DNA from: a virus
Reading direction: 5' to 3' (one strand)
Length of the DNA: 64,000 nt
Virus record (IMG/VR): IMGVR_UViG_3300047409_000574
Location: 62,256-126,255 of that record
Shown here: positions 7,652-55,283 of the stretch, piece by piece
How the letters are laid out: each line of letters starts with the position of its first letter
Numbering within the stretch: the first letter of the stretch is position 1
Notes under the pieces: generated by a model
Databases searched by the model: none
What the model was told of the DNA's origin: nothing
The model's input: the letters and a program-made list of their open reading frames with translations, nothing else
Position numbers and translations under genes: made by a program

Positions 7652-9631
7652 GTGAGCGCTGCCCTAGAGGAAGGCATCTGGGATGCCCTGCGGCACCCTC
7701 GCGGGCGCGGCGGCCAGTGGTCGAAGGTGTTGGGCAAGGTGGAGGCGGCGGCCGGGGAGAAGGGTGACCCGGCCGTCGTCTCGAAGCTCAAGGCGAAGCT
7801 GGAGCCGCCGCCGATCGTTCGGCGTGTCAAGAAGCTGGAGACGACGGAGGCGTTTCGGCGCGGCCGTCGCAGCCTGGGCTACATGCGTCAGTCGGGCGTG
7901 CATGGGGACGAGTTCATGTTCGACCTGGCGACCGATCAGGGGTTCGCGGGTCGGCCGCACGCGGTGAGCGAGGAGGAGCTACAGGCGCATATCGACGCGG
8001 GGGCGGTCGAGATGTGGCGGGGCACGTCGGATCGTTCGTACGCGGACACGTTTCTGACCGGGACGTACTACGCGCTTGCGCTCGACACGCCCATTCCGAC
8101 CCCGAGCGGGTGGAGCACGATAGGGCAGATCGAGGCTGGGGATCAGGTATTCGACGCCGATGGCAAGCCCACGGAAGTCGTGGGCGTGACGCCTGTGTTC
8201 ATGGATCGGCCATGCTACGCAGTCCGGTTCGACGATGGCTCCGAGATTGTTGCTGACGCCGACCATCAGTGGTTGGTATCCACCCGTCCTAGTCGCGAAC
8301 ATGCGCGACGGTGGAAAAACCCCGACAGGCGGATCGTGATGGGAAGGGCGAGGGCGATGCGAGGCGCTGGGGTGTTGCTTCGCGAGATTGGTTCCGAGCT
8401 TGGAATCACGGTGGACGCAGCGTGGAGTGAAGGATCGCACGGCGGTGATCGCGTCGTGACGACGGCGGAGATGGCTGCAACGATCGCGAGTCGGTACGCG
8501 GTTGCGAATGTCGCGCCGCTCAGGCTGCCGGATGCGGCCCTGCCAATCGACCCGTATGTGCTGGGCGCGTGGCTTGGCGACGGCACGGCCGCTAACGCCA
8601 CCTTCACGTGCGAGGACGAGGAGATCGTCTGGCAGATTAGGGCCGCAGGTCATGCTGTTCAGCGTCGGGGCGAGTCGGGCTACGGGTGTCCGAGATGGCA
8701 GATTTTCGACCTTCGCAGGAAGTTGGATTCAGCATCGCTTCTCGACAACAAGCATGTGCCGTCAGAGTATTTCCGGGCGTCGGCCGAACAGCGTCGTGCC
8801 CTCATCTGCGGGCTAATGGACACAGACGGAACGGTGTCCAAGTTCGGCCAGTGTGAGTTTGGCAACGCGAATCGCGCGCTGGCTTACGGCATGGCCGAAC
8901 TGCTTGCCTCTGTTGGCATCAAGGTGCGAATTCTTTGCCGCGACGACGACAGGAGGAGTCGTAAGCCCTTCTTCCGGGTGATGTTCTCGACCCATTCACC
9001 CGTGTTTCGACTTCGGCGCAAGCTTGATCGCCAACAACTAGGGCGGGCCGAGGTGGATAGCAAGATCGGCAGGCACTCCGTTGTCGAGGTGCGCCAGGTT
9101 GAGAGTGTGCCTGTCAGGTGTCTGGAGGTTGCGTCCCTGTCGCACCTGTTCGTTGTCGGCAGGGCGATGATTCCGACGCACAACTGTGGGTTGGGCTTCC
9201 GCGGCAACGGCATCTACACGGCGTCGGGTGCGCGCGCGGAGCAGATGGCGCGGGCGTACGCGACTGCACCGCCGACACGCGGGATCGCGGCGAGGTCGGA
9301 TTCGCCGACTGTGGTGCGGATGGCGTTGCACCGGGACGCGAAGGTGGTCGAGTTCGAGGATGCGGCGCGGAGCGCCCGGCACGCCCATCAGGCGGCGATG
9401 GTGGTGGGGGAGAAGTCGGGCGGTGCGGGCGGCACACCGGATCAGGTGCGGGCGGAGGTCTATCGTGATCCGTCACGCTGGGCGCTCGCGAACGGCTATG
9501 ACGCGGTGCGGGTGACGCAGGCGGATGGCAGCGACGAGCACATCGTGTTGAACCGGACGGCGTTGCTGGTCTCGACGGAGTTTCGGGAGGCCGGGCAGAG
9601 CGTGATGCGTGGGGCGAGGCACGCGGCGTGA
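7652..9631 (+). CDS. HPRGRGG-tagged ADP-ribosyltransferase-like protein interrupted by an intein
   Basis: N-terminal LEE..HPRGRGGQW and GEKGD. The exteins join as MWRG..TGTYY|CGLGFRGNGIY..GYDAV..EHIVLNR, an ART-fold pattern. Confidence 0.75.
   Translation: MSAALEEGIWDALRHPRGRGGQWSKVLGKVEAAAGEKGDPAVVSKLKAKLEPPPIVRRVKKLETTEAFRRGRRSLGYMRQSGVHGDEFMFDLATDQGFAGRPHAVSEEELQAHIDAGAVEMWRGTSDRSYADTFLTGTYYALALDTPIPTPSGWSTIGQIEAGDQVFDADGKPTEVVGVTPVFMDRPCYAVRFDDGSEIVADADHQWLVSTRPSREHARRWKNPDRRIVMGRARAMRGAGVLLREIGSELGITVDAAWSEGSHGGDRVVTTAEMAATIASRYAVANVAPLRLPDAALPIDPYVLGAWLGDGTAANATFTCEDEEIVWQIRAAGHAVQRRGESGYGCPRWQIFDLRRKLDSASLLDNKHVPSEYFRASAEQRRALICGLMDTDGTVSKFGQCEFGNANRALAYGMAELLASVGIKVRILCRDDDRRSRKPFFRVMFSTHSPVFRLRRKLDRQQLGRAEVDSKIGRHSVVEVRQVESVPVRCLEVASLSHLFVVGRAMIPTHNCGLGFRGNGIYTASGARAEQMARAYATAPPTRGIAARSDSPTVVRMALHRDAKVVEFEDAARSARHAHQAAMVVGEKSGGAGGTPDQVRAEVYRDPSRWALANGYDAVRVTQADGSDEHIVLNRTALLVSTEFREAGQSVMRGARHAA
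8072..9184 (+). mobile_element. Class 3 (Ala1, WCT-motif) intein with LAGLIDADG homing endonuclease, 371 aa
   Basis: Starts ALALDTPIPTPSGW; block B ADADHQW; block F VPVRCLEV; ends IPTHN followed by Cys+1. LGAWLGDG and CGLMDTDG motifs. Lower GC3 than the flanks. Confidence 0.93.
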
Positions 9632-9858
9632 GCGGCGAGCCGCCGGTTGCCTGGGAGATCGACTTGCGGCTGCATGATTTGCGCCGTGAGTTGGCGCGGA
9701 TGGAGGACACCGGGGAGGAGTTTGATCTGGCCTGGGTGGCGGCGATGATGCGTGCGGCGTACGCGAAGGGCTATGTGGATGCGCTGGTCGAGCCGGAGCC
9801 GGGGAAGTGGATCACGGAGTACGGCTACAAGGTGCCTGCGAAGGCGAAGCGTGGCTGA
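9628..9858 (+). CDS. Small hypothetical protein
   Basis: GTGA overlap with the upstream gene; AAMMRAAYAKGYVDAL helix. Confidence 0.7.
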   Translation: MSGEPPVAWEIDLRLHDLRRELARMEDTGEEFDLAWVAAMMRAAYAKGYVDALVEPEPGKWITEYGYKVPAKAKRG

Positions 9859-11743
9859 CTCGGCGACGCTCGACGCGCAGGTGTCGTATTCGAGGAAGGC
9901 TGCGGCGCTGATGAATAGCGAGGCGGTGCTCGGGCTGCCGCTCGACCAGCTTTGGGCTGTTCGCGACGCGCTCGCGCAGGCGCGCACGGAGGATGATCTG
10001 CCGTCGCATGTGCGCGTGCTGTTCGACGAGCAGACGCACGCGAAGATTGTGGAGGCTCGCTACACGGAGCGGCTGCATCCTCGTGGCCGGGGTGGGAAGT
10101 GGATCAGGGGGATGCACCGGATCGAGCAGGTGGCGTCGATGGCGAGCACGGCGACGAAGCTCAAGGTCGGCAAGGGTCGCAAGGGTCGCAAGGCAAAACC
10201 GGTGGGCTGGTTGGAGGCGGTGCGGGAGCATCAGAAGGTGCCGGTGCTCAAGCAGAGCGATCTGGTGCGGCGGCGGCGGCAGGCGTTCTCGACTCCACGC
10301 GAGGAGTGGAAGCTGGTCTCGACGGGCGACGGGGATGTTTACGCTCAGGGCGACGCGACGTTGACCTGGCGGTCGAGGAAGATCAACGACAACGTCGAGT
10401 GGGGGTATGAACTTCGGATCGACGGTGGAGAGCCGCGCTGGATTGAGAGCTATCCGGGCGACGGCATCTACGACGTGGCTCGACGGGCGATGCCGGAGCG
10501 GCGCTCGGAGTCCGACAAGTTCATGGACGAGTGGTACGGCGGCCCTGGCCGACCGGGCTTGTATCAGCGGGTGAGCGGTGATCCGGGCGAGCAGTTCGTG
10601 GCGCAGCACGAGCGGATCATGGATGCGGGCGCACGGATCGACGCGGAGATCGTCCGGCGGATGGGTGACGCGGTGAAGCGGCATCGGGAGGCGGTCAAGG
10701 CGGAGCGGGATGCGAAGAAGGCGGTGGTGCTGGCCGAGAAGCATGAGGAGGTGCTGGCGTTCACCGGGATCGGCCGGGAGATGCTCGGGTGGCTGGAGCA
10801 CGACCCGGAGCAGTTGACGCCGGATGCGCTACGCGAGCGGCTGCGGCTCTACAACCGTGAGGCGGTGAAGCTGGCGCGCAACCAGGACAAGTCGGTGATG
10901 ACGACGGCGAACGCGCAGTTGTGGGACATGCACGAGTACGACCGGTTCAACGTCGCGGAGCGGAACGGCATCGACTTGCAGGCCGCGCACGACGCAGGCT
11001 ACGAGGCGCGCGTTGTGGTGTTTCGCGCGGCCGATGAGCGGCGGGCGGCCGAACAAGACCTTGCCGACAGGCGGCGCGCCGCGACCTGGGAGGTGCTCGG
11101 GGAGACGCGTCGGTTCGGCAACGAGTTCGAGATCACCCACGACTACTCGCCGGACGTGATGCACTACGACGAGACGACTGCGAAGGCGCTCGACTTCGTC
11201 GCGGTGTTTCTGCCGCACGACTGGATTGTGGACTCGAACCGGTCGGAGTATCGGCTGCTGGTTGGCGAGGCGGATCAGCGCGGGAGCTACGGGCATGCAC
11301 GGTCGTTCAACGTGCAGACCGGTGTGGGGACTTCGGTGTTGACCGGCAACCGTGAGCAGAAGGATCACGGGGCGATGTTGCCGCGTGGGGCGGGGGTGGC
11401 GTTGCACGAGATGGTGCACCGCGCGGAGTACGTCCATGACGGGATCAAGGGGGCGGAGTGGACGTTCTACCAGCAGCGGGTTTCGCCGGGCGTCAACCGC
11501 ACATGGGAGACGCCGGAGAGGCTGATCGACTTGATCCCGAACTCGGGCTACGAGGAGCACGAGATGGCGCGCCGCGATCACTTCACCCATCCCTACTCCG
11601 GGAAAAGTTACGGGGATGACATGGAGTCAGCGTGGGAGCTTCTGACGATGGGCGTGCAGGACTTGGCGACCGGCGAGCACGGGATCATCGACAAGGACGA
11701 GGAGTACCGGCAGTTCGTCCTGGGCGCGCTCGCCATTCTCTGA
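9851..11743 (+). CDS. HPRGRGG-tagged protein with C-terminal HEXXH metallopeptidase-like domain
   Basis: Likely start is the GTG at 9851. IVEA..HPRGRGGKW at about 10076; ALHEMVHRAE..YSGKSY..WELLTMG. Confidence 0.75.
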   Translation: MADSATLDAQVSYSRKAAALMNSEAVLGLPLDQLWAVRDALAQARTEDDLPSHVRVLFDEQTHAKIVEARYTERLHPRGRGGKWIRGMHRIEQVASMASTATKLKVGKGRKGRKAKPVGWLEAVREHQKVPVLKQSDLVRRRRQAFSTPREEWKLVSTGDGDVYAQGDATLTWRSRKINDNVEWGYELRIDGGEPRWIESYPGDGIYDVARRAMPERRSESDKFMDEWYGGPGRPGLYQRVSGDPGEQFVAQHERIMDAGARIDAEIVRRMGDAVKRHREAVKAERDAKKAVVLAEKHEEVLAFTGIGREMLGWLEHDPEQLTPDALRERLRLYNREAVKLARNQDKSVMTTANAQLWDMHEYDRFNVAERNGIDLQAAHDAGYEARVVVFRAADERRAAEQDLADRRRAATWEVLGETRRFGNEFEITHDYSPDVMHYDETTAKALDFVAVFLPHDWIVDSNRSEYRLLVGEADQRGSYGHARSFNVQTGVGTSVLTGNREQKDHGAMLPRGAGVALHEMVHRAEYVHDGIKGAEWTFYQQRVSPGVNRTWETPERLIDLIPNSGYEEHEMARRDHFTHPYSGKSYGDDMESAWELLTMGVQDLATGEHGIIDKDEEYRQFVLGALAIL

Positions 11744-13662
11744 TGTTCGCGCTGCTCACCGATGACGCGCTGTTGCGCTGGCAGGACGGAAAGGTGTCGG
11801 GCTTCCCGTTCGAGACGGTGCTCGACGCGGAGATCAAGCTGGGTGATGGGCCGCAGGCGGCGACACCGACGGGGCCGTTCTATCGAGTGGGTTCGCCGGA
11901 GCATGCGGTGATGGCGTTGACGAAGCTGCTGCCGGGCGCGGAGTTGCACGGGGAGGTGCCGGTGATCCCGGAGTTCCCGGACGAGCTTGACCCGGAGCCG
12001 CTCCAGGAGGCGGCGGAGTTCGCCGAGCGCCTGCATCTCCGCAACCGGCTCGGCCGGTTCCGCGACATGCCTGACCTGCACCTGCCGCACGTCGGCGCGC
12101 CCGAGCACCACGCGCTCTACAACGAGTTGGGGATGGGCGACGAGCAGTTGATCGACGCGGTTCGCAAGGCGGTGCAGGAGCGGCCGGAGCGCGTCACGCA
12201 TGGCTACACCGGCCACAACTCCTTCTTCATCGTTGGCGACGAGGTGTTCTCGCACAACGACTGGCCTAACATCCCGCGTGACCTGCGCGACCAGGCGGTC
12301 ATGGTGCACTCGCACTCCCCCGACGGGCTGACCGGCTCGCTTCGGCGGCCGGACTACTTCGACCAGCCGCACGACAAGCAGCCGTTGAACGCCGAGGACA
12401 TGTTCATCTGGATCAAGGGGATGCGCGACAGGCAGATGGGGCCGAGGCTGGCGATGATCTACGCCGACGGCACGATGGATGTGGTCGGGATCACGCACGA
12501 GACCGACGACAAGGTGCTCAAGTGGGGGCAGAAGCGCCTGCACGATTCCATCGGCCGGGCGGAGCGCGACCACATGCGCGCGTGGCTTGCCGAGCGGAAG
12601 TTCTCGTACCACGAGCAGTTGCGCTGGGGGACACCGGATGAGGCTCGACAGATTCGGGCGCTGCATCCGAGCGAGTCGATTCGCGAGACGGGCACGGCGG
12701 CGGGCGAGAAGGGCGGCCAGGAGAAGCTCTCGACGGGCAAGTGGGTCAACAAGCTCCCGGCGGAGTATCTGCCGAGGTCGGACGCTGCTCGGTTCTGGTC
12801 GTTTCTGCCCGGTGTTGGAGGCGAGAAGGGCGATGAGCCGCTCAGTTCGCTCACGACCGCCGAGAACTTCGCAGCGGTGTTCGACGGGTTCGAGCACGGC
12901 GGGATCGTCGCGCACGTTGAGGAGCATGTGCAGGTCAACCCGCCGGACGCGCAACTGAGGGTCGGCGGGAGCCTGGCGCTCGCGGAGGTGCGCGGCGTGT
13001 TCGAGGACACGACCGCCGATGGCCCCCGGCTGGGCGGGCAGTTCGACAGTTACCTGGCGCGCGACGAGGAGAACAAGCTGCGCGCGTTCCTTTCGCTGTT
13101 GATCCTCAAGCCGGAGCAGCAGGGCCGGGGGTTCGGCACGGCGTTCTTTCAGCACATGCTGGAGGAGTACCGGCGCAACGGGGTGCACGCGGTCGGGCTA
13201 ACGGCTGGCGACAGAGTGGGCGGCTTCCACTGGGCCGTACAGGGCTTCGACTTCACGACGGGTCTCTACTCGATCCTGGCGTCCGGTGAGGACTTGGAGC
13301 GCCGCTCCCATCTCTACGGCGACGAGAAGTTCGCGCGCGCGTACGCGGTCAGCCGGATGTGGAAGGAGCGCAACCTCGACCACCCACACTTCTTCATGGA
13401 GCGGACATACCAGGAGCTACCGCCCGACCACTACGAGCAGTTCGAGGCGCAGATGCCGACCAAGGAGAAGCTCGACGCCTACGCGGCCGGTGACCTGTCG
13501 GCATTGGACGGCACGTTCGACTCGCCGCAGGAGATCGCGCTGTTCGGCAAGCAGACCCATACCTGGGTGGAGTCGCACGACCCGTACTCGATGGGTGAAC
13601 GCATGTGGTTGGGCAAGCGCTTCCTGCTCGGGGCGGAGTGGCGCGGGGAGATGACCCTCTGA
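11743..13662 (+). CDS. Tagged polyprotein: N-terminal small domain, JAB/MPN-like domain, GNAT acetyltransferase
   Basis: TGATG coupling. LQEA..HLRNRLGRF; VHSHSP..LNAEDM (HxH..D); GEKG at 12703 and 12820; QQGRGFGT..GGFHWAVQGFDF (GNAT motif A). Confidence 0.72.
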   Translation: MFALLTDDALLRWQDGKVSGFPFETVLDAEIKLGDGPQAATPTGPFYRVGSPEHAVMALTKLLPGAELHGEVPVIPEFPDELDPEPLQEAAEFAERLHLRNRLGRFRDMPDLHLPHVGAPEHHALYNELGMGDEQLIDAVRKAVQERPERVTHGYTGHNSFFIVGDEVFSHNDWPNIPRDLRDQAVMVHSHSPDGLTGSLRRPDYFDQPHDKQPLNAEDMFIWIKGMRDRQMGPRLAMIYADGTMDVVGITHETDDKVLKWGQKRLHDSIGRAERDHMRAWLAERKFSYHEQLRWGTPDEARQIRALHPSESIRETGTAAGEKGGQEKLSTGKWVNKLPAEYLPRSDAARFWSFLPGVGGEKGDEPLSSLTTAENFAAVFDGFEHGGIVAHVEEHVQVNPPDAQLRVGGSLALAEVRGVFEDTTADGPRLGGQFDSYLARDEENKLRAFLSLLILKPEQQGRGFGTAFFQHMLEEYRRNGVHAVGLTAGDRVGGFHWAVQGFDFTTGLYSILASGEDLERRSHLYGDEKFARAYAVSRMWKERNLDHPHFFMERTYQELPPDHYEQFEAQMPTKEKLDAYAAGDLSALDGTFDSPQEIALFGKQTHTWVESHDPYSMGERMWLGKRFLLGAEWRGEMTL

Positions 13663-13704
13663 CGGGGGCTTGTTGGAGTCAGCGCTGATGGCTACGATGG
13701 GGGC

Positions 13705-13860: not shown

Positions 13861-13908
13861 CAATCAGCGTTGACGACCCGGCACGGTTCCAGTACCGTGC
13901 CCTAGGTC

Positions 13909-15987: not shown

Positions 15988-15997
15988 GCTGCGGGAG

Positions 15998-16216: not shown

Positions 16217-18213
16217 GCACGACCGCGGCACCTTTGACGTTCGACGCGTGGGAGGAGATGCGGGTCGAGATCGAGGAGGTCGCCGCCGACGGCACCCAGA
16301 CCGCGGAGGAGCGGGCCGCCCGGCTGAACGAGTTCAAGCTCGACCTGACTGAGATGCTGGGGGTGGTCGCGACCTACATCGGGGATGCGCAGACGGAGGC
16401 GTCTGGTCGTACGAGGGAGGAGCAGTTGGCGGTCGAGCGGCTGCGCGAGAGTGCCGACATTCGCGCTGAGTTGCTGGAGCGCGGGGTGGCGACCGAGGAG
16501 GCGCTCGACGATGCGCTGATGCTTTCGCATGAGGCGATCGACCAGCTTGTCGAGGACGGCATGCTGGAGGAAACGGCGATGCACGTGGCCGGGTTCATGC
16601 GCAAGTTCGAGGAGGGTAGGCATCCGCGCGGGCGGGGCGGCAAGTGGATCGACGTGCTCGGCAAGATCACGAAGCTCAAGGAGGGCGACTCGCACTCGGC
16701 CGGGATGGGGGTGCGTGCGAAGAACATGGGCGGCACGATCCATGTGCAGCGGCACGGCAAGACGTTGTCGAAGCACACGAACCGGGAGAGCGCGGCGCGG
16801 GCGCTGCTGGCGGCGGCCGAGACCGCCCCGCCGAAGCGTCGCCGCGAACCGGTCGCGAGCGCCGAACATTGGAAGGGCGGCACGCATGTGTCGGTGACGG
16901 GCGGCCAGCACAAGGGCAAGTCCGGTGAGGTGGTCACCCATCATGCGTCTACCGGCGAGGCGACGGTGGACTTCGGCACCCATGTCGGGGTTGTGAAGCA
17001 GGAGCATCTGCGCCAGGACAGAGCACCGGGCGCGGGTGGCGCGGAGCGTGCGGCGGAGGATACGAAGATCGCATCGCGCGCGGCCGAGCAGGAGCTTTCG
17101 CCGGAGGAGAAGAAGGCGCTGTACGACGAGCGCAAGACTCGGCTGGAGACGCAGGCGGTGAAGGCGGTGAAGTCGGCGGCCGAGCGCGGGAAGCTCTCGG
17201 ATGCGGAGTCTCATTTTTCTGAGACGGGTCGCGTCAGTCAGCGCACGCTCGCGAACTATGTGGAGGAGGCTTCGACCTCGCCGCAGACGAGCGAGCTTTA
17301 CTCGTCGATCAACGCTGCGACGGGTGAGCGCGTCTGGAACTCATCGCGCAAGGTGCTGCACGAGAGGATCATCACGGCGTACTTGAAGAAGCGGAAGATC
17401 GACCCGGAGACTGGCAAGTCGGTGCTCGACTACAGCCCCGACGCGGAGGACTTGCAGTCGCACCCGGATGGGCCGCGAGTTTTATTTTCTGGTGGGGGTT
17501 ATGCGAGCGGAAAGGGCGGCGTGTTGAAGATTCTCGCGGCGCGCGGGGAGACGCCGCCGGACTCGTTCGTACTCGACCCGGATCAGATCAAGGCGGAGCT
17601 TCCCGAGTTTCAGGCGATGATCGGCACCGACCCGGAGGCGAACATGCACGTCTACCGGGAGGCGTGGGCGATTGCGCAGGAGATTCAGGCGCGTGCGATG
17701 GAGAAGAAGCTGAACATCACGGTCGATGGGATCAGCAACACCGCGCCGGAGGAGATGGGCCAGCGCGTCAAGGCGTTCACCGATCGCGGCTACAGCGCTC
17801 ATGTTGTCTATGCGGACATTCCGACGGAGGAGGCTCTCAAGCGTGCCGCGAATCGTGCCGAGAACGCGAAGGAGGACTCCGACCGCAGGATGATCCCGGA
17901 GATCATCATGCGCTCCGTGCATCGCGATGTGGCGGCGACGGTTCCGGCACTACCTGGCTACTTGGACGAGCACGGGATTCCAGCGCACATCGAGGTGTGG
18001 AACAACGATCAGGGCAAGGACGAGCAGGGACAGTTCCGTCCGCCCCTCAAGTTTTTCGAGCACGCGTCGTCGTCGCATCCTGGAATTGCCGGTGTCGGGG
18101 ACAAGGCTGGTGGCGAGCTACAGACCGGCAGCATCGTCCACGATCAGGGCTTGTGGGACGCGTTTAGGAATAAGGGTCACGAGTCGATCTCTCACGTCGA
18201 GGGAACGAATTAG
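16213..18213 (+). CDS. HPRGRGG-tagged protein with KOW-like motif and C-terminal zeta-toxin family P-loop kinase
   Basis: Acidic N-terminus with LRES and LEET; HPRGRGGKW at 16621; VSVTGGQHKGKSG; LFSGGGYASGKG (Walker A), DPDQIK, NITVDG, RMIPE. Confidence 0.85.
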   Translation: MSTTAAPLTFDAWEEMRVEIEEVAADGTQTAEERAARLNEFKLDLTEMLGVVATYIGDAQTEASGRTREEQLAVERLRESADIRAELLERGVATEEALDDALMLSHEAIDQLVEDGMLEETAMHVAGFMRKFEEGRHPRGRGGKWIDVLGKITKLKEGDSHSAGMGVRAKNMGGTIHVQRHGKTLSKHTNRESAARALLAAAETAPPKRRREPVASAEHWKGGTHVSVTGGQHKGKSGEVVTHHASTGEATVDFGTHVGVVKQEHLRQDRAPGAGGAERAAEDTKIASRAAEQELSPEEKKALYDERKTRLETQAVKAVKSAAERGKLSDAESHFSETGRVSQRTLANYVEEASTSPQTSELYSSINAATGERVWNSSRKVLHERIITAYLKKRKIDPETGKSVLDYSPDAEDLQSHPDGPRVLFSGGGYASGKGGVLKILAARGETPPDSFVLDPDQIKAELPEFQAMIGTDPEANMHVYREAWAIAQEIQARAMEKKLNITVDGISNTAPEEMGQRVKAFTDRGYSAHVVYADIPTEEALKRAANRAENAKEDSDRRMIPEIIMRSVHRDVAATVPALPGYLDEHGIPAHIEVWNNDQGKDEQGQFRPPLKFFEHASSSHPGIAGVGDKAGGELQTGSIVHDQGLWDAFRNKGHESISHVEGTN

Positions 18214-18246
18214 GAACCGCTGCTTGCTTGTCACGGTAAGTAGGGT

Positions 18247-22900: not shown

Positions 22901-23046
22901 TCATCCACACCTGGCACGGCAACTACTCGGCGTTCAACGGCTACCGGTTCACGCCGTCGGACTACTCCGAACTCGGCTGTAGTCGGTGCGGTGTGTCGTG
23001 GCGGACGAACGCCGCCTACGTCGAGGAGTTGACGGCTCGTGTCTAG
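19955..23046 (+). other. Operon of small hypothetical genes (19955-20236, 20239-20793, 20790-21224, 21364-21747, 21744-22013, 22010-22207, 22204-22578, 22575-22835, 22828-23046)
   Basis: Coupled + strand ORFs downstream of cassette copy 1. Confidence 0.65.
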
Positions 23047-24049
23047 ACCTCGTGGGTTCGCACAATGGAACCCGAAGCCCGACACGCTGGCCGTCCTGGC
23101 GGATGTGGAGGGCGTGCTGGCGAGGTACTCCGAGTTCCTGCCGTTGACGGCCAGACAAATCTTCTACGCACTCGTTGGCACGACTGGCTACGACAAGACG
23201 GAGAAGGCGTATGCGCGGCTGTGCGAGTACCTGGTGCGCGCACGGCGGGCGCAGATGATTCCGTTCGAGTCTATCCGCGACGACGGCACGACCCACCACG
23301 ACTTCGTGAAGTACCTGGGCGTTTCCAACTTCTGGGAGCAGATGGTCGATCATGCCGACCACTACGTGCGCGACAAGATGGCCGACCAGCCGGTCTACGT
23401 CGAACTGTGGTGTGAGGCGGCAGGCATGGTGCCCCAGTTGGAGCGGGTCGCGAACCGCTACTCGATCCCGGTCTACTCGACGGGTGGGTTCTCGTCGGTG
23501 ACGGTGACCTACGAGATCGCGGAGCGCGCGCTGGCACGTGACCGGCCGACGGTGTTTCTGCACGCGGGGGACTACGACCCGTCGGGCGAGTCGATCTTCG
23601 ATTCGATGACGCGGGACTCGGTGGCGTTCCTGCGCAACCGGATGGTCTGGGAGGGCAAGAAGAAGGGCTGGCCGTCCGGGGTGATGGACGAGATTCAGAC
23701 CGGCAACGGCGGGCTGTTCGTCGGGGCGATCGGCGAGGCGATGCCGGAGGGCTACCCGGACTTGCGTCCGCGCCGGGTGGCGCTGACGGAGGAGCAGGTG
23801 GAGGAGCACGACCTGCCGACGGCTCCGGCGAAGCCGACCGATACGCGGTCGGCGAACTGGGTGGGCGAGACCTGTCAGTTGGAGGCGATGCCGCCGGATT
23901 TACTCGCGGAGGTGATCCAGGAGGCGATCCTCAGTGTGCTCGACCGCGACCGGCTGGAGGAGGTTTGGCTGGAGGAGAAGCGGGAGCGCCAGGTGGCGAA
24001 GGAGCAGATCGCTCGGCTGATCGAATCTGGCGACACTGAGGATGCGTAG
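23039..24049 (+). CDS. wHTH plus Toprim protein (Topo VI-A/DUF2399-like)
   Basis: LTARQIFYALV; VELWCEA; GGFSS; AGDYDPSG (DxD); RVALTEEQV; QLEAM. Confidence 0.8.
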   Translation: MSRPRGFAQWNPKPDTLAVLADVEGVLARYSEFLPLTARQIFYALVGTTGYDKTEKAYARLCEYLVRARRAQMIPFESIRDDGTTHHDFVKYLGVSNFWEQMVDHADHYVRDKMADQPVYVELWCEAAGMVPQLERVANRYSIPVYSTGGFSSVTVTYEIAERALARDRPTVFLHAGDYDPSGESIFDSMTRDSVAFLRNRMVWEGKKKGWPSGVMDEIQTGNGGLFVGAIGEAMPEGYPDLRPRRVALTEEQVEEHDLPTAPAKPTDTRSANWVGETCQLEAMPPDLLAEVIQEAILSVLDRDRLEEVWLEEKRERQVAKEQIARLIESGDTEDA

Positions 24050-44403: not shown

Positions 44404-47108
44404 ATGACGACTAAGACCGTGACGAAGCTCAAGCTGTTCTCGTGGCTCGGCTTGCTGCCGCGAGACTTCGAGGTGCCGAAGGGCGAGCGGCATCACGTGC
44501 AGGTCTCGTGCTGGGTGGCGCTGCCGTCTCAGGCGGCGTTCATGCGGCTGACTGACTCGCCACGATCGTTTCTGCCCTACGTGAGCATCATGGACGGCGA
44601 CCGCGATCCGGCGAACCCTGGCGCGAAGCTCGCGCTCGCGAATCCCGGCACGGTCTACATGCACGATGTGTTCAATCACACGCCGGGCGAGAACGTCTGG
44701 CTGGTGCATCCGTTCAACGGAAGCTCTCACGAGGTGCAGCGATGATCTACTCGGTCACGTTCGAGGTTGGCGACGACCAGGTCGTAGCAGTCGCAATCGC
44801 GCGAGGGGTTGCGAAGCAGTTTGCGACCGAGGTGACGGTCACGAAGGACGATCACGGCAACTCGGTGTTTGTCGAACGGGTGAAGCCGTGACGCAGCCGA
44901 AGCTCGTGATCGAGATTGCGCTCGGCAACGATGCGATGGTGACTCCGGCGAACGCGCAGTCCGCGATCCTGGCGGCGTTCGGTGCGCAAACGGCGCTGTT
45001 CGAGTTGTTCGAGTTGGGGCACGCCGGTGCGATCAACGATGTGAACGGGAACTACGTGGGCGCGTGGAAGGTGGTCGAGTCCTGATGGCGAAGATCAGCC
45101 GCGTCACGAAGATCGGCTCATACGGTCACGCGGACAGCGTCGAGCGGTTTGAGTACGACGAGTCTCAGGCGTCTCTTTCGCATATCGACCGCCATTCAGC
45201 GTTTGTCGGCGACTGCTTCATCTTGAAGCTGCGCTCACCGGCGAAGCACGTTCTCATGCAGGCGGCGGCGGTCACGGTGATCTCGCCGAACCACGGGTGG
45301 GTAGAGGGCTTCGTCGAGGTGGATGCCGACGGCGGGGCGCTCGACGACCTGGAGGACGAGCACACCGGTGTGTTCGGCCGGGAGATGTGGACGTGGTATT
45401 CGTGAAAGACGGGAGGCTGCCAGCGCAGCACGTCACGAGTTGGGGCACGCCGGTGCGATCAACGATGCGTGCGCGCAAGGTGCCGACCGGGCCGCTGTCG
45501 GAGCGCATGGAGAAGGTGCTCGTGGCCCTGCTCGTGCACGACCCGGAGAATCGTGGACTGACGAACAACCGCATCGGGCACTTGATCGGCTTCCGAACTG
45601 GCAGCGATCGGCTCGCGCACGACGGGCGGATGATGGGCGCGGCGAACCGGGTCAACGCGTGTGTGATGGGCCTGGAGCGTCGCGGACTTGTGTGCTTCGC
45701 GCGCCGTAGGGATGGACTGTCGGGCACGGCCTACCGGTTGACGCCGGAGGGACTCATCGAAGCAAGGAGGATCAAGAGCATGGAGTTGCCAGAGGGCTAC
45801 CGCACGGGTGCGGAGAATCCCGACTTGGCCGACGTGGTCGCGGTCTGGCTGGAGGAGGGCTACACGCCGGAGGACGGGTTCGAGGACTTGAACCTGGAGC
45901 CGGTGCGCGCGGGCGATCTCGACTTCCTGCCGGGCAACAACGTGGAGGTCGAGGAGGAGCACGAGATGTATCCCGGCGAGCCGGGCGTGGTCAAGGCGGC
46001 CGGGAAGGGTACGGGCTTGCATGGCGGCGAGATTGTCTACGACGTGCTGATCGAGGGCACCTCGCACGCGGAGCGGTTCACCGCTCAGGACTTGACCGGC
46101 TGATGGCGACCCACACTCATCCGGCGGATGTCCGCGAGCACGGTTTGCAGGACGACTGCGAGCGCTGCGAGGAGATGGCGAAGCAGCCGTTCGAGACGCT
46201 CGACGACGACAACCTGACGGTGCTGATTGGACGCACGAAGTCGTGGATGGCGGATGAGTCGGGTGTGTTTCCGCGCTCGACGAACGAGGCGGTGGCGATG
46301 CGGGTGGTCGAGTCGGCGATCAGGTCGGCGCGGACGATCGACCGGCTGGAGGCGCTCTGATGGGCGCGCCTATTGCCAGGATGGTCAAGGCTGAACGGTG
46401 GATCGAGGACGCGACGGGCCGGGAGGTGGAGGTGGTCGCGCGCGAGCGGTCGATCGACGGCGACACGTTCTACTGTTACCTGGCCCCGCTCGGGAATGAG
46501 GCGCTGCTCAACTGTCAAATGCCGAGCAAGAGGTTCGAGCGGCGCTTCACGAAGGCGGCGACCGGCGAGGTGAAGTGGCATTTGACGACGCGCCCGTGGA
46601 GTTTCGGCTACGAGGACGGCGAGCACTTCGGCGAGCATCTCAGGGCGATCCGCGAGGAGCTTGGCTTCGAGACCACGGAGGAGTTCTCGGCCTGGCTGTA
46701 CGTGGAGGGCAAGCGTCGATACGGCCCTAACTACAACCCGAACTTGGATGTGCCGCCGGTGTTGCTCGATGCGTTCGAGTTCCCGGCGCTCGGGGCGGAG
46801 TCGGCGTCCATCGTGATCGAGACGGTCGCGCAGGCGCTCGGCGTGTCGCCTGGGACTTTGCTGGACGAACTATGGTTGCGCTGTTCGGGCTACAGCGATG
46901 GCGGCGACCCGCCGCCGGAGGAGGACTGATGGTGTACGTGTTGCGGGAGACTGACGCGCCGGTGCGCGTGGTCGTCGATCGCCGCGAGGGCGGCTACGTC
47001 TACTACCGCCATGTGGGCGGGGCGGCGAGCACGACGGCGCGGCTGACTGAGGCGAAGTTCGCCGAGACGTTCATCGACGAGGCGCTGCTTCGGCTGGAGG
47101 AAGTGTGA
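44404..47108 (+). other. Operon of small hypothetical genes (44404-44745, 44888-45085, 45085-45405, 45402-46103, 46103-46360, 46360-46929, 46929-47108)
   Basis: Coupled ORFs after cassette copy 3. Confidence 0.6.
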
Positions 47109-47785
47109 TCGGCTCGGACTTTCAGGTGGTCTACAACGCGACCCGCAACGACTCGCCGTTGCATCTGCTTCGGCGGGGCGGCTTGCGGGTTGCGGTGTGC
47201 GGGGAGCCGCTCGGGCCGTGGGGTCAGTTCCGGGTGAAGGACGAGTTCGGCGTCAAGGACGATCCGGCGGCGTCGTGTCTGCCGTGCCTGGTCAGGCATG
47301 CGGCCCGGCTCGCGATGATCGTGCACGGCAAGCAGATCGACCAGGACGGCAAGCCGCACATCGAGCATGTGAAGCGGGTCGCGACTTCGCTGGAGGGCGA
47401 CGACGAGGCGGTTGTGGTGGCGTTGCTGCACGACGTGGTCGAGGACTCGCAGGGGGTGACGTTCGAGACGTTGCGGATCGAGCACTTCCCGAAGGTGCTG
47501 GTCGAGGCGGTCTGGCTGCTCACGCGCGGGCAGGCGGAGAGCGCCGACACCTATCTGCCGAACATCTGCCGGGCGTCCAGCCGGGAGGGCACGCTCGCCC
47601 GCCGGGTGAAGCTCGCGGATGCGCTGGACAACTTCCGCCGGTCGAAGGGTGATCCGGTGCGCGAGCCGCGCTACCGGGGCTATGTGCGCGAGGTGCTCGA
47701 CGCGATGGTGCTGGCGCTGGAGGCGACTGCGCCGTTCGCGAATCAGATTTGGGACGAGTTGCGCGGGGAGACGGCGGTCGCGTGA
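47105..47785 (+). CDS. HD-domain RelA/SpoT-type hydrolase (small alarmone hydrolase-like) with N-terminal Cys/His motif
   Basis: HGKQIDQDGKPHIEHVKRVA..ALLHDVVED..LLTR..VKLADALDN. Confidence 0.85.
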   Translation: MIGSDFQVVYNATRNDSPLHLLRRGGLRVAVCGEPLGPWGQFRVKDEFGVKDDPAASCLPCLVRHAARLAMIVHGKQIDQDGKPHIEHVKRVATSLEGDDEAVVVALLHDVVEDSQGVTFETLRIEHFPKVLVEAVWLLTRGQAESADTYLPNICRASSREGTLARRVKLADALDNFRRSKGDPVREPRYRGYVREVLDAMVLALEATAPFANQIWDELRGETAVA

Positions 47786-48119: not shown

Positions 48120-51100
48120 GTGTCCGACGACTTGACCCTTCACCCTCTGCTCGCTTGCTTCGTCGGTCGGCTCCAGGAGGCGGGCCTGGATCGGACTGGG
48201 GCGCTGGCGGTGGCGTGCACGAGCCTGGCCCGCTGGGAGAAGTCCGGGAAGGGCGATGCGGGGGAGCGTCTGCCGGAGCGGGCGCGGGCGCTGGTGAAGC
48301 GGGCGCTGTACGAGTTCGAGGGGCTGCACGGCTTCCACGATGGGCTGCTGGAGGCTGTGCGGGCGGTGGGGGATACACCGTTGACGCCGGAGGCTGCACG
48401 GGAGGTGGTGGAGGCTGCGACGACGCATGCGGCGCTGGCGCTCGGGCTGCTGGAGACGGTGCGGGATCGGGACGAGGTGGTGCAGGGCCGGGCGATGGAG
48501 ACGGCGGCGAAGCTGCTGAACCTGGAGTTCACCGGCACGGCGCAGGACGAGGTTTCGCGGATGCGCCAGGCGCTCGACCAGGCGTTGTGCGCCGACAAGG
48601 TTTTGATCGAGGGGATCGGCCATCGGTTCGAGGAGTTGCTGCATCCGCGTGGGCGGGGCGGCGAGTGGATCAAGGGTTTGCAGAAGCCGGGCGACAAGGG
48701 CGGCGGCGATCTGCCGCCGGAGGCTGGGAAGTTTTACAGCGCGCACGTTCAGGGTGCGCAGGCGAGGCTCAAGATTCTGCGTCCGCATCCGCGCAGACCG
48801 GGCTGGTGGGAGGCGGAGAATGTCACGACGGGCGGCCGGGTGCGCGTCACGCCGGACATGCTCACGCCGGAGTCGGGCGACAAGGGTGGCGGCGAGTCGG
48901 GCAAGCTCGACCGGGGCGCGCCGGTGCGGCTGCGCGGCGGCCCGAAGAAGTGGAGCGTGTTCGAGGATCACGGCAACGGCTACGTGACGATCTCTCACGG
49001 TCAGGCGTTCGACCAGGTGAAGAAGAAGGTGCTGCGTCGGGACTTGACTCCGTGGGGTGGCGACAAGGGCGGCGGCGGTGTTCGCAAGCAGATCACTCGG
49101 ATCAACCTCGTCCCAGGGGGCGAGGGAGACAAGGGCGATCCGGGCAGGCAGCGCACGGGCGACCCGAAGATCGACAAGCTGATCGAGGAGTTCCTGCGGA
49201 CGCCTATGGGCGACTGGACTAGCGACGACAACACCTACGAGGCGTTGCGTGATCCCGAACGCTCGCACGGTGCTTGCCAGGAGGTCACGGATCACTTTGT
49301 GGAGTTCGCGAAGGCGCGCGGCTTCAAGGCTTACTCCACGAACACCGACATGGAGGAGATGGGCTACACGCCGCAGATCAAGCCGTTCGGTGAGGTGGGC
49401 TTCGATGACCACGGCGAGATGCAGTACGGCTTCTATCCCGAGCACACGATCGCCACGATCGTTGTGGACGATCCCGCGTACAAGTACGGCCGCGAGTTCT
49501 ACATCGACTTCACCGCGAGCCAGTACGGGTACAAGGAGCATCCGAAGGTGACCGAGTCGCTCGACGAGGAGACCTACTGGCGGCTCTGCTCGGACGTGGT
49601 GGCGCTGCGCACGGTGATGCTGTTCGAGGCCGACGACCGGGAGCAGCGCAAGCTGCGGGCGAACGCCGCCGCGCTCGTCGAGCGGATGCGCTACCTCGCG
49701 CCGGGCGAGTTCGACGCGGTGCCACGGGTGACCGACGAGATGCTGGCCGAGTCGGTGGAGGTGACGTTCGAGCCGGTGCTCAACATTCTGTTCGAGGCCG
49801 GGCAGGCGTTGGCGGCCAAGCCGCCGCCGGTGAGTTCCGATCCGGTGACGCGGGCGCATCAGGTGACCGGGACGAAGCCGGGTGAGACCGGTGTGCCGAA
49901 CGCGGACTTCGAGAGAGTCCACCCTCGTTCGCGCGGGGGCGTGTTCGCGAAGAAGGGCGACGGGCTGGGGGCGCAAGCGTCGAACCCTACGGTGAAGCAG
50001 TTGCAGGCCCGCCTGTCGGCGATGGGCTACCGGGTGGTGCAGGACGGCCAGTTCGGCACGGTGACCGAGCAGGCGGTCAAGGCGTTCCAGAAGGATCACG
50101 GGCTGCCGGAGTCGGGGCATGCGGATGCGCGGACGGCGGCGGCGATGCGTGATCCGGGCGCGGGCGTGCACAACCGGCAGACCGCGGGCACGGCTGCTGG
50201 AACGGCTGCTGGAAAGAAGGGTTCCAGTAGCGCTTCGAGTAGCTCGACCGGTGTGTCGCTCGGCAAGGCGGGGATGTTGCGCCGCGGGGACGGGATGGGG
50301 CCGGGCGCGAAGCCGTCGAACGAGGTGGCGGTGCTCCAGCAGACGCTCGACTCGATGGGCTACGAGGTCGGGGTGGGCGGCGCGGACGGCCGGTTCGGGG
50401 AGGACACGCAGGCGGCGATCGAGATGATCCAGCGGCGGTACGGGCTGCGGGTGGATGGGGTGGTGGGGTCGCAGACCGCCGACCTGATCCACCGGCTGAT
50501 GACTGCGCGGGCGAAGCAGGGCAGGCAGGACGGGCAGTTGTCGGTGGACGAGATGCCGTCGAAGGGCGTGACGCCGAACAAGGTTCCGAAGGGCACGTCG
50601 GGCCGGAGGGCGGCGAAGAAGAAGGCTGCGCCGAAGCTACCGAAGCAGGTGACGGTGGCGGCTGCACCGGCGGCTACGGGGGGTCAGAGTTTGAGCGCGG
50701 GTTCGCGCCTACAGCATGCGGCATCTACCGCAGAGGAGGAGCAGGACATGGAGGACGTGGCGCTCGTCGAGGTGACCTTTGATCCATCGAAGCACGCACG
50801 CGGGCGGGGCGGCAAGTTTGCGGAGATGCTCGGGCATGCAGCCGAGGCGTGGAAGTCGGGCAAGGCGTATCTCGACAACTCGGGGAACTACCGGCTCAAG
50901 AGTGAGGGGGGGAACAGTCGCAGAGGTCAGGTCGCGCCGTGGAACAAGGCGGTCAAGTCTGCGTTCCCGAAGCACGACGACTTCGCGCGTGCGATCGACC
51001 CTGCCGCCGCCAAGTCACACGATGAGGCGATGGCGCGACTGAACAGGTTCGAGGTGAAGTCGGTCGGTGGGGAGCACCATGTGATCGACAACCAGGATGG

Positions 51101-54100
51101 CGGTCGGATCGTTGCGAAGCACAAGTCGTTCGCGGGCGCGCGGAAGAAGGCGCAGAAGTTGGGCGACGCGCAGCCGGGCGGGCGCGACGAGCAGGAAGCG
51201 AAGTGGCGCGAGATTCGCGGCGAGCAGCCGCGCAGTCCTGCGACGACGCGCTTGCAGTCGGATGCGATCGACCGGAGCCGTCGGGTGCACAACGCGAACG
51301 TCGCGAAGGACGAGGCTGCGGCGGGCAAGTGGCATGGACAGGATGTGTCGAGCGGCAAGCTCGTGCCGGTAGAGGAGATGCACCTCCTGTCGGATGAGCA
51401 GGTGCAGCAGTTGATCGACCGGGCGACCAATCCCAGGACGCAGCAGGCTCCGGCGGAGTGGGCGTCGGCGGTCGCGCGCGAGGCGAACAAGCGGAAGGCC
51501 AAGTTGCGGGAGGCGAGCTTCTCCTCTGGCGGGTTCGACACGAACTCGCCGGTGCAGCAGAAGTCCGGCGGGGTCAACGGCCTGAACGGTGGCGGCGCGA
51601 ACGGCGAGGCGCTGCCGGGCGGGCGCACGTCGGGCACCGATGACGTGTGGGGTGGCTCACGGGCGACGAGGCCGCCTGGTCTGCGCGAGTCACCGGCCGA
51701 CAGCTTCGCATCGTGCGCGACGTGCGTGCATCACAACGGGGCGCGGCTGTGCGCGCTCTACAGCGCCGGGACTGACCCGGACGATCTCTGCGACTCGTGG
51801 TTCACGCTGACGCCGGTCGAGGCGCGGACGACGGCGACGATGCTGCTGGCACGGTTCGACCGCGGCGAAGGCGGGCAGGTGGATGAGGCCGCGCGCGCCG
51901 ACCTGATCCGGGACGGGTGGGCACGGCTTGAGGAGAGCGTGCTTGACTTGCCCGAGACCGCGTCGGTGGCGCGCGGCATGCTCTCGCAGGGGGCCACGGT
52001 CGCCCAGGCGCGCGTCGAGGCGACGCAGGTGGTCGCCCGGCGCGTGCTTGACCGGGAGCGCCGTGGTTTGTTCGGCCATGATCTGGAGGAGGCCGCCGGG
52101 GCGAAGAAGGTGAAGTGCCCGAAGTGCGACACGGTGCAGGCGGCGACGAACAAGGCGTGCGTGAAGTGCGGGAAACCGATGCAGGGGATGGGCGGCAAGC
52201 TGAACGAGTCGCTGCTCAACGCGGCCGGTGGTGTGCTCGACGACTGGCTGGCCGAGAGCACGCTGACGGCGGAGGCACGGAAGAAGCTGCCGAAGGACGC
52301 GTTCGCTGTCCCGCCGGACAAGTACCCGATCCACGATGAGGCGCATGCGCGGAACGCGCTCGCGCGGGTGGCGCAGCATGGTTCGCCGAAGGAGAAGGCG
52401 ATGGTTCGGCGGAAGGTCAAGCAGCGGCATCCGAAGATCGTGCAGGAGGCGCTCGACCTGATCGCGTGCGAGGTCTGCGCGCTCGACGAGGATTCGCAAG
52501 GGCTGGCCTGGTCGTTGTTGGAGGCGGCTGACTCGATGGTCAAGGCGACGGTGCACGAGCCGGTCGGCAAGCCGGGCGGGAAGGGGCTGTGGGGCCACAA
52601 GGGGATGCAGCTTCCGGCGTACATCCAGCACATCGCGAACGATCTGCGTGAGAAGCGCGGCATGACTACATCGCGGGCGGTCGCGACGGCTATCGCGGCG
52701 GTGAAGCGGTGGGCGGTCGGTGGCGGCAAGGTTGATGCGACTACGCACGCGGCGGCGATCAAGGCCGTCGCGGAATGGGAGGCGCTCAAGGCCGCATCGC
52801 ATGCGCATCTCAAGGAGTCGGGTGTGTTGAGCGAGGCGGGCATGGTGATCCACTTCGACCCGCATCTGCATCCGCGTTCGCGCAAGGGCGAGTTCATCGA
52901 CGTGCTGGGCAGGCTGATGCAGGGCCATCGCGGCGGCGAGGTGACCTTGCCGCACGGGGTGAGTGTGCGCAAGCAGGGCGGGCTGCTGGTGGTGCGCGAC
53001 GGGGGCGGCCCGGCGGGGGTGTATCGCAACCCGGCCAAGGCGGCGGCGAAGGCGCTCAAGCAGACGGGTATCCCGTCGCCGAAGCACACGAGCGCGGACA
53101 TGGGGATTCGCACGCCCCGGTTCGCGATCGCGTTCGACAAGGGCGATCCGAGCACGCCGGGCTGGACGAAAGTGGAGGCGGCGACGGGCAGGTTCCCGGC
53201 GCATCACCGGACGTTGCCGAACGGCCGCTCGGAGATGTTGACGAAGCTGCCGGGGGAGGATCACTGGCGGCACATCGGCATGACCCGGACGGGGAACGTG
53301 GATGCGTTGCGGGCGGTGCCGGACGCGGAGGCGCGGCAGATGATCGCGGGGGAGCAGGGCGGTCATGTGGTGCATCTCCAGTCGGTGGGCTTGCATCCGG
53401 CGAAGCCCGCGTCGGAGTTCGTGCCGGGCGATCATGTGGTCTACAACTTTGGTGTCACGGGCGAGGTGACGAAGGTGGAGCCGAAGGGCAACTCGGTGGC
53501 GCTTACGACGCGCAGCGCGGACGGGAGGGAGTTCACGTCTACGAAGCGCGGCTCGACGTTGTTGGGCCATTCGCTGCGTTCGTACAACGGGGCGGAGAAG
53601 GGCGGCGGCGAGTTCCGCGTGTCGTGGTATGACGGCCGTCCGCCGGAGGGCCACACGTGGGGGGTCGGCGACAAGGCGTTCTGGAACGGCCGGAACGTGG
53701 AGATCATCAGCAAGCTCGGGACGGTTTCGGGTGCGGAGCAGAACTACGGGATCAAGTTCGAGGACGGGCATGTGAACTGGGCGAAGCACAGCGAGCTTTC
53801 GCTGCCGTACACGGGCGACAAATCAGGTGGCCGGGGCGGCTCGTGGGGCGACACGGAGGGCGGCCAGGACGCGACGCGTGGCAGGGAGGCTCCGATCCGC
53901 TCGGGCGCGCAGCCGATTCCTGCGGCGACGTTGAGGGGCGGCGGCCTGGATGAGATTCGCCACACGGTCGTCTATCGCAAGCAGGACGGCTCGTACAGGG
54001 AGACGGGCGTCAGCGCGCGGGACTCGAATCACGCGCGCGAGCTTGCGGCCCGCATCATCCCGGAGAACGCCACGATCACCCAGGCGTTCCCGGAGAGCGA

Positions 54101-55283: not shown

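Follow-up and report, generated by a model that had tools for sequence, protein, structure and literature searches.

We looked at a 64,000-nucleotide stretch of viral DNA, hereafter the window, which covers positions 62256-126255 of IMG/VR record IMGVR_UViG_3300047409_000574 and makes up the second half of this single 126,255-bp virus record (66.7% GC). Five large open reading frames (ORFs) in the window, here called A to E, share a short peptide motif, the HPR tag, which occurs eight times (Table 1). The local form of the tag is about 20 residues long, with the consensus L-x-E-[AGV]-x-[WYF]-x-E-x-L-HPRGRGG-[KE]-W-[IV]-x-K-x-G. Five copies match the strict form H-x-R-G-x-G-G (7694, 10076, 16621, 48642, and 50793, all in + strand coding frames) and the other three are variants. 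Tag 1 alone is N-terminal; the other seven begin 100-1580 residues into their open frames. An aromatic residue stands before the His in all eight tags (at -5 in seven, at -4 in one), and an [LIV]-x-E site lies within 20 amino acids (aa) upstream in seven, the exception being the tag at 49920, against a background of 0.26 (P=5e-4). When a small residue is demanded after the Glu the count is still seven of eight, against a background of 0.11 in this proteome (P=1.5e-6). An earlier note, made from the letters alone, had reported eight tags in five large ORFs with these flanking features and had seen none in the small early genes; all eight were found in frame where it had placed them, the aromatic residue and the upstream site held, and genome-wide pattern and profile searches found no tag in the small early genes.

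Table 1. Features of the window that are discussed in the text. Positions are those of the window unless marked otherwise; tags are given from residue -10 to residue +13 around the His.
Feature	Positions	Strand	Description
Giant post-portal ORF, 5277 aa, 3' end	1..4399 (genome 50821-66654)	+	continues from upstream of the window
ORF A, 659 aa	7652..9631	+	tag, GEKGD, and after these a domain split by a LAGLIDADG intein (5.1e-8)
Tag 1, N-terminus of ORF A	7664..7735	+	core HPRGRGGQW 7694-7720; LEE-G at -10
ORF B, up to 663 aa	9752..11743	+	tag, then C-terminal HEMVH region
Tag 2, ORF B	10046..10117	+	core HPRGRGGKW 10076-10102; IVE-A at -10
ORF C, up to 676 aa	11632..13662	+	tag, two GEKG[GD], weak GNAT
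Tag 3, ORF C	12004..12075	+	variant core HLRNRLGRF 12034-12060; LQE-A at -11
ORF D, 672 aa	16195..18213	+	acidic helical N-region, tag, Zeta_toxin/AAA_33 kinase domain
Tag 4, ORF D	16591..16662	+	core HPRGRGGKW 16621-16647; kept in the sole homologue found (P0002)
ORF E, polyvalent protein, 2387 aa	48120..55283	+	four tags, five G[ED]KG[DG], two PG_binding_1, long unassigned regions
Tag 5, ORF E	48612..48683	+	core HPRGRGGEW 48642-48668; LIE-G at -13
Tag 6, ORF E	49890..49961	+	variant core HPRSRGGVF 49920-49946; directly before two PG_binding_1 repeats; no upstream [LIV]-x-E
Tag 7, ORF E	50763..50834	+	core HARGRGGKF 50793-50819; LVE-V at -10
Tag 8, ORF E	52839..52910	+	variant core HPRSRKGEF 52869-52895; LSE-A at -14
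Putative prohead protease (N-terminal ~270 aa) and scaffold, 497 aa	60439..61932	+	N-terminal [LIV]-x-E-A sites IAEA, LHEA, LREA
Major capsid protein, HK97-like	62334..63443	+	Phage_capsid_4 5.9e-32; ORF open from 62115, probable start Met at 62334

Ten ORFs of the genome have at least 600 aa. The tag occurs in the five for which no structural role is recognised, and not in the remaining ones, namely the tape measure, the portal, the terminase, a 650-aa ORF and a giant ORF of 5277 aa that follows the portal gene. Pfam finds Zeta_toxin in ORF D (1.8e-20), two stretches of PG_binding_1 in ORF E (3.6e-33) and a GNAT domain in ORF C that stays below the cut-off (0.0024). Of the domains named in the earlier note, the zeta kinase and the PG-binding repeats stand, the HEXXH peptidase is matched by the HEMVH string of ORF B, GNAT stands weakly, and the ART-like domain of ORF A, the JAB domain of ORF C and the papain-like domain of ORF E were not recovered by Pfam. 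None of ORFs A-E has a MuF-like domain. The Arg-rich first ~50 residues of ORF B suggest a start later than that of the open frame, and the probable start of ORF C is the ATG at 11743, which overlaps the stop of ORF B. A protein word-index search with the tag region of ORF D gave 25 candidates and two matches, namely the protein itself and its homologue P0002.

Scanning all six frames of the 126,255-bp genome with the pattern H[PAL]R.R[GKLRN]G.[FWY] returned exactly the eight tags, and a profile built from 67 tag contexts also returned exactly these eight, from 12 candidates scored at E<=10. The chance expectation is 0.05 per genome (mean of 40 Markov-1 simulated genomes), and a looser regular expression gave a mean of 0.1 in 200 residue-shuffled proteomes against eight observed, which are seven tags and one loose match in a 217-aa ORF. 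The eight copies are written with different codons, so that the conservation is at the protein level and points to selection on the peptide. A DNA repeat or recent duplication is ruled out as the origin of the copies by the same codon differences. A compositional artefact of a high-GC genome is ruled out by the simulated genomes and by a search of one genome from each of 185,579 prokaryotic species, which gave no match to the local dialect when its upstream context was included; the possibility, raised in the earlier note, that the motif is equally frequent in unrelated high-GC proteomes was not borne out for this dialect.

Two other strings in the window look similar to the tag. H-P-R-R-P-G-W-W at 48786 (residue 223 of ORF E) lies 48 residues after tag 5 and has one residue fewer between the Arg and the aromatic pair. 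The loose match mentioned above, F-L-L-H-A-R-N-V-L-G-P-W at 60162, is in an ORF at 59742-60395, just upstream of the protease/scaffold gene; it resembles an HPRNRLGKF dialect and may be either chance or a ninth, decayed tag, and the profile gives no report for it at E<=10.

A degenerate DNA pattern for HPRGRGG-x-[WF] occurs in at least 114 IMG/VR stretches. Among the 137 matches listed there, 63 are in frames of at least 200 aa with a common extended context, and the rest are short out-of-frame chance matches. In the 59 unique contexts among the matches listed, the conserved upstream positions are L at -10 (32/59), E at -8 (38/59), an aromatic residue at -5 (53/59), E at -3 (42/59) and L at -1 (49/59), and downstream these are followed by W at +8 (53/59), I or V at +9 (49/59) and G at +13 (33/59). 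Four relative contigs (G001-G004; 107-125 kb, two with terminal repeats), in which the portal is 44-51% and the major capsid protein (MCP) 56-59% identical, have seven to nine tags each. No close relative was found in a collection of cultured phages by searches with the DNA, the ORF D protein and the MCP protein. When the profile was run against 1.84 billion cluster representatives, 374 proteins matched at E<=0.001, 74 of them at E<=1e-10. The best 150 of these 374 contain 372 tags, with two or more tags in 114 proteins and a median spacing of 310 aa, and in 47 of the 150 the first tag lies within the first 50 aa.

The number of copies goes up to 16 per protein, as found by regular expression in both P0019 and P0038 (7334 and 5313 aa), each of which is encoded on a 409,570-bp NCBI contig that probably comes from a jumbo phage or a megaplasmid. 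The tags of these two proteins have the form F-S-x-W-D-E-x-K-HPRGEHG-[RK]-[WF], and repeated ends of ART-PolyVal-like modules (…Q-I-K-S-A-x-G-N…) directly precede them. HPRDRRGRW and HPRDRLGKW are further dialects, and the general form, after which a Gly-rich spacer usually comes, can be written as [WFY]-x-[DE]-x-x-H-P-R-[GD]-x-x-G-[KR]-[FW]. At the eight variable positions of the tag the identity is 0.53 within proteins vs 0.34 between proteins. Such homogeneity would fit recognition by something encoded in the phage, and shared ancestry contributes to it as well.

In prokaryotic genomes a more general pattern, which demands HPR together with W at -5, G at +6 and F or W at +8, is found in at least 120 stretches. 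Among the matches listed about 96 look real; they come from genomes of 27-76% GC and many phyla, including one metagenome-assembled genome of a methanogen, and 51 of the 96 tags lie within the first 60 aa of an open frame. The consensus among these listed matches is W-[DN]-E-[SE]-x-HPRD-[DE]-x-G-[KR]-F, with [DN] at -4, D at +3 (61/78), acidic residues at +4/+5 and Gly at +12/+13; it is net acidic and has no upstream L-x-E. The basic RGRGG character is a local dialect of a cross-phylum motif, and the tag is not special to the toxin arsenal that the earlier note saw in this phage.

The same note had supposed that the basic tag directs packaging, DNA binding or ejection of the payload. One possible option is that P-R-G-R-G-G-K-W works as a hook on packaged DNA, similar to an AT-hook, and that the cargo leaves the capsid with the genome. 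The local dialect is indeed basic and resembles the P-R-G-R core of AT-hooks, and DNA in the capsid would be a universal partner. Yet, because the general dialect is net acidic (D at +3 in 61 of 78 matches listed), a DNA-binding hook is unlikely; the 16-copy giants use HPRGEHG, and what stays invariant is H, P, R, G and a pair of aromatic residues, not a basic run. An AT-hook consists of a G-R-P core flanked by basic residues, and such a core is found in none of the eight tags. We consider the hook very improbable, and the least probable of the explanations discussed here.

Among cultured viruses, Gordonia phage GodonK has a single tag at residue 28 of gp67 (1479 aa), whose gene follows the portal gene, and tblastn matched the N-terminal region of this protein in phages Phendrix, Sixama, Forza, Boopy, BlueNGold, and Mareelih. 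Streptomyces phage Gilgamesh also has a single tag, at residue 37 of gp48 (4624 aa), encoded after a portal-MuF fusion, and in the haloarchaeal virus HHTV-1 the tag is at residue 138 of gp13 (1100 aa), two genes from a Mu gpF-like gene. Searches of plasmids gave seven non-mobilizable Streptomyces replicons of 125-132 kb and one Thermobispora plasmid (1e-5). On conjugative plasmids the tag was not found by BLAST, a search of low sensitivity since tblastn with short tag queries is insensitive; only phage-type contexts were seen and the matches at E>=4 look like chance. The Streptomyces replicons (e.g., NZ_CP070374.1, NZ_CP122459.1, NZ_CP108441.1) have N-terminally tagged giant genes similar to Gilgamesh gp48 that are annotated as helicases, and they look like extrachromosomal prophages; their size and these tagged giant genes are the reason why we read them as Gilgamesh-like.

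The position of the tagged genes can be described for the present phage and for its relatives. The first half of the record encodes a tail sheath, tape measure, baseplate wedge, RecT, an exonuclease, the large terminase (1.2e-71) and the portal (3.9e-26), and based on this content of tail, terminase, portal and capsid genes the record is a myovirus-like phage, with nearly all of its genes on the + strand. The gene order is terminase, portal, giant ORF and ORFs A-D, and ORF E lies ~5 kb upstream of the protease/scaffold and MCP genes. In G001-G004 there are 28 strong matches, of which 19 are in the ORFs directly after the portal gene, no more than 10 kb downstream of it, in line with the enrichment in head-module genes that the earlier note expected of related phages. 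The first post-portal ORF of these relatives encodes a MuF-like domain, then the tag and then the cargo, and domains seen in the relatives are Zeta plus NUDIX, GNAT, and LPD1.

Ten tagged ORFs from bacterial genomes were scanned, and five have a portal domain in the same chain, with the tag located after the portal. In three of these five fusions the domain directly behind the tag is LPD3, LPD13 or PBECR1, and the chain with LPD3 contains Phage_Mu_F as well. An ADP-ribosyltransferase with an N-terminal tag is also among the ten. Ten ORFs adjoining small, N-terminally tagged genes were also looked at, and five of them encode a terminase, a portal or minor capsid protein 2. In a BLAST screen with a dozen queries, portal, MuF or terminase was found in at least 20 of 91 loci. 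The cargo recognised by Pfam in 34 tagged proteins includes PG_binding_1 (10), Zeta_toxin (4), PolyA_pol (2), HicA (2), HD (2), and GNAT (2), and further cytidylate kinase, NUDIX, and ADPrib_exo_Tox. A CCA-adding enzyme is also among the cargo that the tag precedes.

Prediction of the tag structure in AlphaFold2 gives a predicted local distance difference test (pLDDT) score of 58 for the tag alone. When the tag stands beside the MuF-like N-domain it is disordered (pLDDT <50 for residues 285-327), and no docking of the tag in cis on this domain is seen in the model. According to these models the tag is a short linear motif within a linker; the Gly-rich spacer comes after it, and the cargo after the spacer. 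As it has no fold of its own, the tag must act by being recognised; and as it precedes each cargo module, whether this is stand-alone, chained or fused to portal/MuF, we read it as part of the downstream module. Judging by sequence, the tag marks the N-terminal edge of each cargo or effector module in portal/MuF-linked polyvalent proteins.

We suggest, tentatively and with somewhat less than even confidence, that the tag is a recognition or address label for cargo modules that are carried in the head. In such a mechanism a conserved component of the procapsid or of the mature head would bind the tag, and would keep the cargo module in the head and/or present it for exit together with the DNA. 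In the lineage of the present phage a prohead protease similar to T4 gp21 would cut after the Glu of [LIV]-x-E, in front of a small residue, 7-10 residues upstream, and the tag would be retained as the start of every fragment set free in this way. A broader version, in which the HPR tag is a universal cargo signal of the tailed viruses of Bacteria and Archaea and any module that carries it enters the head and is delivered with the DNA, we find rather doubtful.

The candidate for the cutting enzyme is the protease/scaffold ORF upstream of the MCP gene. By language-model features it is Peptidase_S77-like (0.94), with 19 of 30 matches in PF03420 clusters and 168 shared features, against a guide value of 170. 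T4 gp21 cuts after L/I-x-E, as was first seen at a Glu-Ala bond, and it has such a site near its own N-terminus (PMC9026906). In an alignment of 42 homologues of the present ORF the motif L-x-L-x-E-A is found near the N-terminus, with the E in 40 of 42, the L two positions before it in 35 of 42 and the following A in 28 of 42. None of the 42 lacks an [LIVM]-x-E-[AGSV] within its first 70 aa, and two or three such sites are usual. H95, S162, and D194 (P0155 numbering) are invariant in these 42 proteins and could be a candidate catalytic triad. The link to T4-like maturation that was drawn in the earlier note has some support: an [LIV]-x-E site with a small residue precedes seven of eight tags, and an S77-like protease ORF, as a lead only, has its own L-x-E-A. 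In contrast to the T4 capsid-targeting sequence (CTS), the tag would stay on the product, since the [LIV]-x-E-small site lies 10-20 residues upstream of the His. Complex prediction of the protease/scaffold protein (479 aa) with the tag (48 aa) gave a score of 0.00 in two runs without controls, a result that bears neither way on binding.

Several findings weigh against the proposed address label. With regard to the protease, the ORF has no match in Pfam at E<=0.01 and no match to a protease in the PDB, and hhalign against T4 gp21 gave E=0.32 with 5 rows and 0.066 with 42 rows, with the same 51-53 columns aligned; in addition, none of 104 homologues of the ORF has a Pfam domain, and its S77 membership should be taken as a lead only. 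The L-x-E site is missing from the general dialect and from tag 6. An intact tag is absent from the 5277-aa giant protein, as found by the genome-wide profile search, and two of the ten ORFs adjoining small N-terminally tagged genes are plainly cellular (a P-type ATPase and ThrRS, the threonyl-tRNA synthetase). The carriers are probably head-associated, and for their presence in virions the proposal leans on gene position and on what Iyer et al. (2017) inferred for polyvalent proteins. Three more points concern the tag itself. Cargo that is fused to the portal keeps the tag although no loading signal is needed there, which favours a role in release or processing, or one after assembly. One tag should presumably suffice for loading, yet up to 16 near-identical copies are found in the giants. 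The main difficulty is that the motif is near-identical across portal families and in an archaeal virus, which is hard to reconcile with a rapidly evolving receptor and is unexplained by any protein-receptor model.

The first two of these three points can be explained if the tag is a pure processing signal, that is, a recognition element or the scissile site itself (e.g., after H-P-R), at which polyvalent and portal/MuF-fused proteins are cut, with no role in loading or ejection. The tag is found in every inter-domain linker of the giants (16 each in P0019 and P0038) and between portal/MuF and cargo, where release but not loading is needed; it is disordered and a flexible spacer follows it; and zincin-type HEXXH domains are found in these proteins here. 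Autoproteolytic processing of polyvalent proteins was also proposed by Iyer et al. (2017; PMC5512222). However, about half of the prokaryotic tags (51 of 96 among the matches listed), as well as that of ORF A, stand right at the N-terminus of ORFs of their own, where there is no preceding part from which the cargo would have to be cut, and Gilgamesh gp48 and GodonK gp67 each have a single N-terminal tag. The tag has ~14 conserved positions, vs three residues in protease sites of the T4/phiKZ type, and a site that co-evolves with its protease would not usually be kept so alike in different phyla and with different portal families. This explanation is the main rival of the address label; we find it unlikely, and somewhat more so than the universal cargo signal.

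The third point, the near-identity of the motif in genomes of 27 to 76% GC, whether from different bacterial phyla or from an archaeal virus, argues that its partner is strongly conserved. Such a partner could be met if the tag acts after delivery, in the infected cell, where it would bind a conserved host factor or small ligand, or control the activation or turnover of the effector; in the present lineage the tag would be kept on the mature fragment. This alone does not explain the linkage to portal, MuF, and terminase, the dialects are homogeneous within a phage, and no candidate partner was identified in our analysis, so that we regard action after delivery as improbable. The ribosome may be another universal partner that could explain conservation across domains of life, if the tag were a nascent-chain signal or translational pause. 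The tag may also be a recombination boundary at which modules are shuffled, as with the pre-toxin motifs of polymorphic toxins, and it is located exactly at the module boundaries before highly variable cargo. Against this, the codon differences leave the copies too unlike in DNA to be of much use to recombination, and tags at residues 2-30 are preceded by no domain that a pause could help to fold. A junction or pause is, in our view, a little less probable still than action after delivery.

The address label that we propose may be compared with known systems. Similar to the tag, the T4 CTS is a short peptide on unrelated head-carried proteins (the internal proteins IPI-III and Alt; PMC9026906), it is adjacent to [LIV]-x-E, its cargo is thought to be injected, and an S77-like protease, here by language-model features, is present. 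The CTS, however, is an extreme N-terminal propeptide of ~10 residues that lies upstream of the cut and is removed, whereas the HPR tag lies downstream of the putative cut, would be kept, and is also internal and multi-copy, with only one of the eight tags here being N-terminal. The two have no sequence similarity, and the CTS is T4-like while the tag is cross-phylum. Encapsulin cargo-loading peptides are comparable in that they are short, disordered and terminal, have a flexible Gly-rich linker and direct unrelated enzymes into an HK97-fold shell; they do not resemble the tag in sequence and are usually single and C-terminal.

The carriers themselves belong to the class of polyvalent proteins (Iyer et al., 2017; PMC5512222), with many effector domains in one chain (ART-PolyVal, LPD1/3/13, PBECR1, Zeta, NUDIX, and zincin-like HEXXH), fusion to portal/MuF or a place next to it, and predicted packaging. 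In the present genome several unrelated effector domains are likewise found per chain, in a head/packaging neighbourhood. MuF polymorphic toxins, the subject of Jamet et al. (2017; PMC5576092), have an N-terminal MuF domain and variable C-terminal toxins; in the relatives the first ORF after the portal is alike (MuF-like domain, tag, and cargo), while most of the tagged proteins here have no MuF domain. A search for terms in the main text of Iyer et al. (2017; PMC5512222) found no description of the tag, all 14 uses of the word "motif" being on catalytic motifs, and its supplementary alignments could hold it. In Jamet et al. (2017) such a search found none of the words "motif", "linker" and "pre-toxin". 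No known family was found for the tag in Pfam, in NCBIfam or, by profile, in the PDB, and the best Atlas match was at 0.80. Letter-string and keyword searches of the literature gave nothing relevant to the motif and nothing on the proteins of the cultured carriers, and the keyword search on capsid targeting gave only T4 work. The tag is probably a previously undescribed motif, a description of which was found in no literature searched, and which the supplementary alignments of the polyvalent and MuF papers could hold.

Injected proteins act before any phage gene is expressed, which makes them prime candidates for anti-defence and takeover functions, and so far the only ways to recognise them are virion proteomics and a fusion to MuF or portal. 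If the address label is true, the tag, shared by hundreds of otherwise unrelated modules, would make injected modules predictable from sequence, from Melainabacteria prophages to actinophages and a halovirus. If it is even a universal cargo signal, the injected effectorome of a phage genome could be read from the tag alone, and foreign proteins might be loaded into capsids by transplanting it. The tag would also give a handle for experiments on the storage of large proteins in capsids and their exit from them. Should it prove to be no more than a processing site, it would still show where the domains of giant polyvalent proteins begin and end, and would point to a maturation step that is conserved.

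The giant ORF, which lies between the portal gene and ORF A, contains a MuF-like N-domain split by an intein, LigT (7.5e-10), ART-PolyVal (4.2e-8), a weak LPD1 (0.0013) and an HEMGH string. The N-domain is homologous to the first post-portal domain of the relatives (3e-24), which align to residues 63-196 and 470-550, on the two sides of the intein at residues 197-469. Its H-x-x-C-x-C signature also looks MuF-like; Pfam Phage_Mu_F has no match in the giant ORF or in the relatives. The predicted fold of the first post-portal N-domain of the relatives gave weak matches only (best 2e-3, template-modelling scores of 0.2-0.4, 0/500 at E<=0.001), and among the top 50 of these weak matches are many entries named "minor capsid protein", "phage head morphogenesis domain" or "MuF-like". 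With the LAGLIDADG element of ORF A, the effector genes of the head region have two inteins.

After the LigT domain of the giant ORF, at residues 727-748 (genome ~53000, upstream of the window), there is a degenerate relic of the tag, L-Q-E-A-R-W-E-R-R-F-P-K-G-S-E-H-A-G-E-F, in which the upstream context L-x-E-A-x-W is kept, the His is lost and the spacing is altered, and which is below detection by the profile. A second linker motif, G-[ED]-K-G-[DG], has 22 copies in four proteins only (14 in the giant ORF, one in ORF A, two in ORF C, and five in ORF E), often with a small residue before it and a Pro after it. It is missing from the tagged ORFs of 40 related loci, where one lone match is in an untagged ORF. 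It may be a site, particular to the present phage, at which the giant protein that lacks the tag is processed or modified. Other genes of the window encode a topoisomerase-like protein (23039-24049; PHROG 1.7e-36), an HD phosphohydrolase (47105-47785; 4.8e-29), a DUF6573 protein (56603-57007; 1.8e-24) and a collagen-repeat protein (58254-58904; 3.5e-8).

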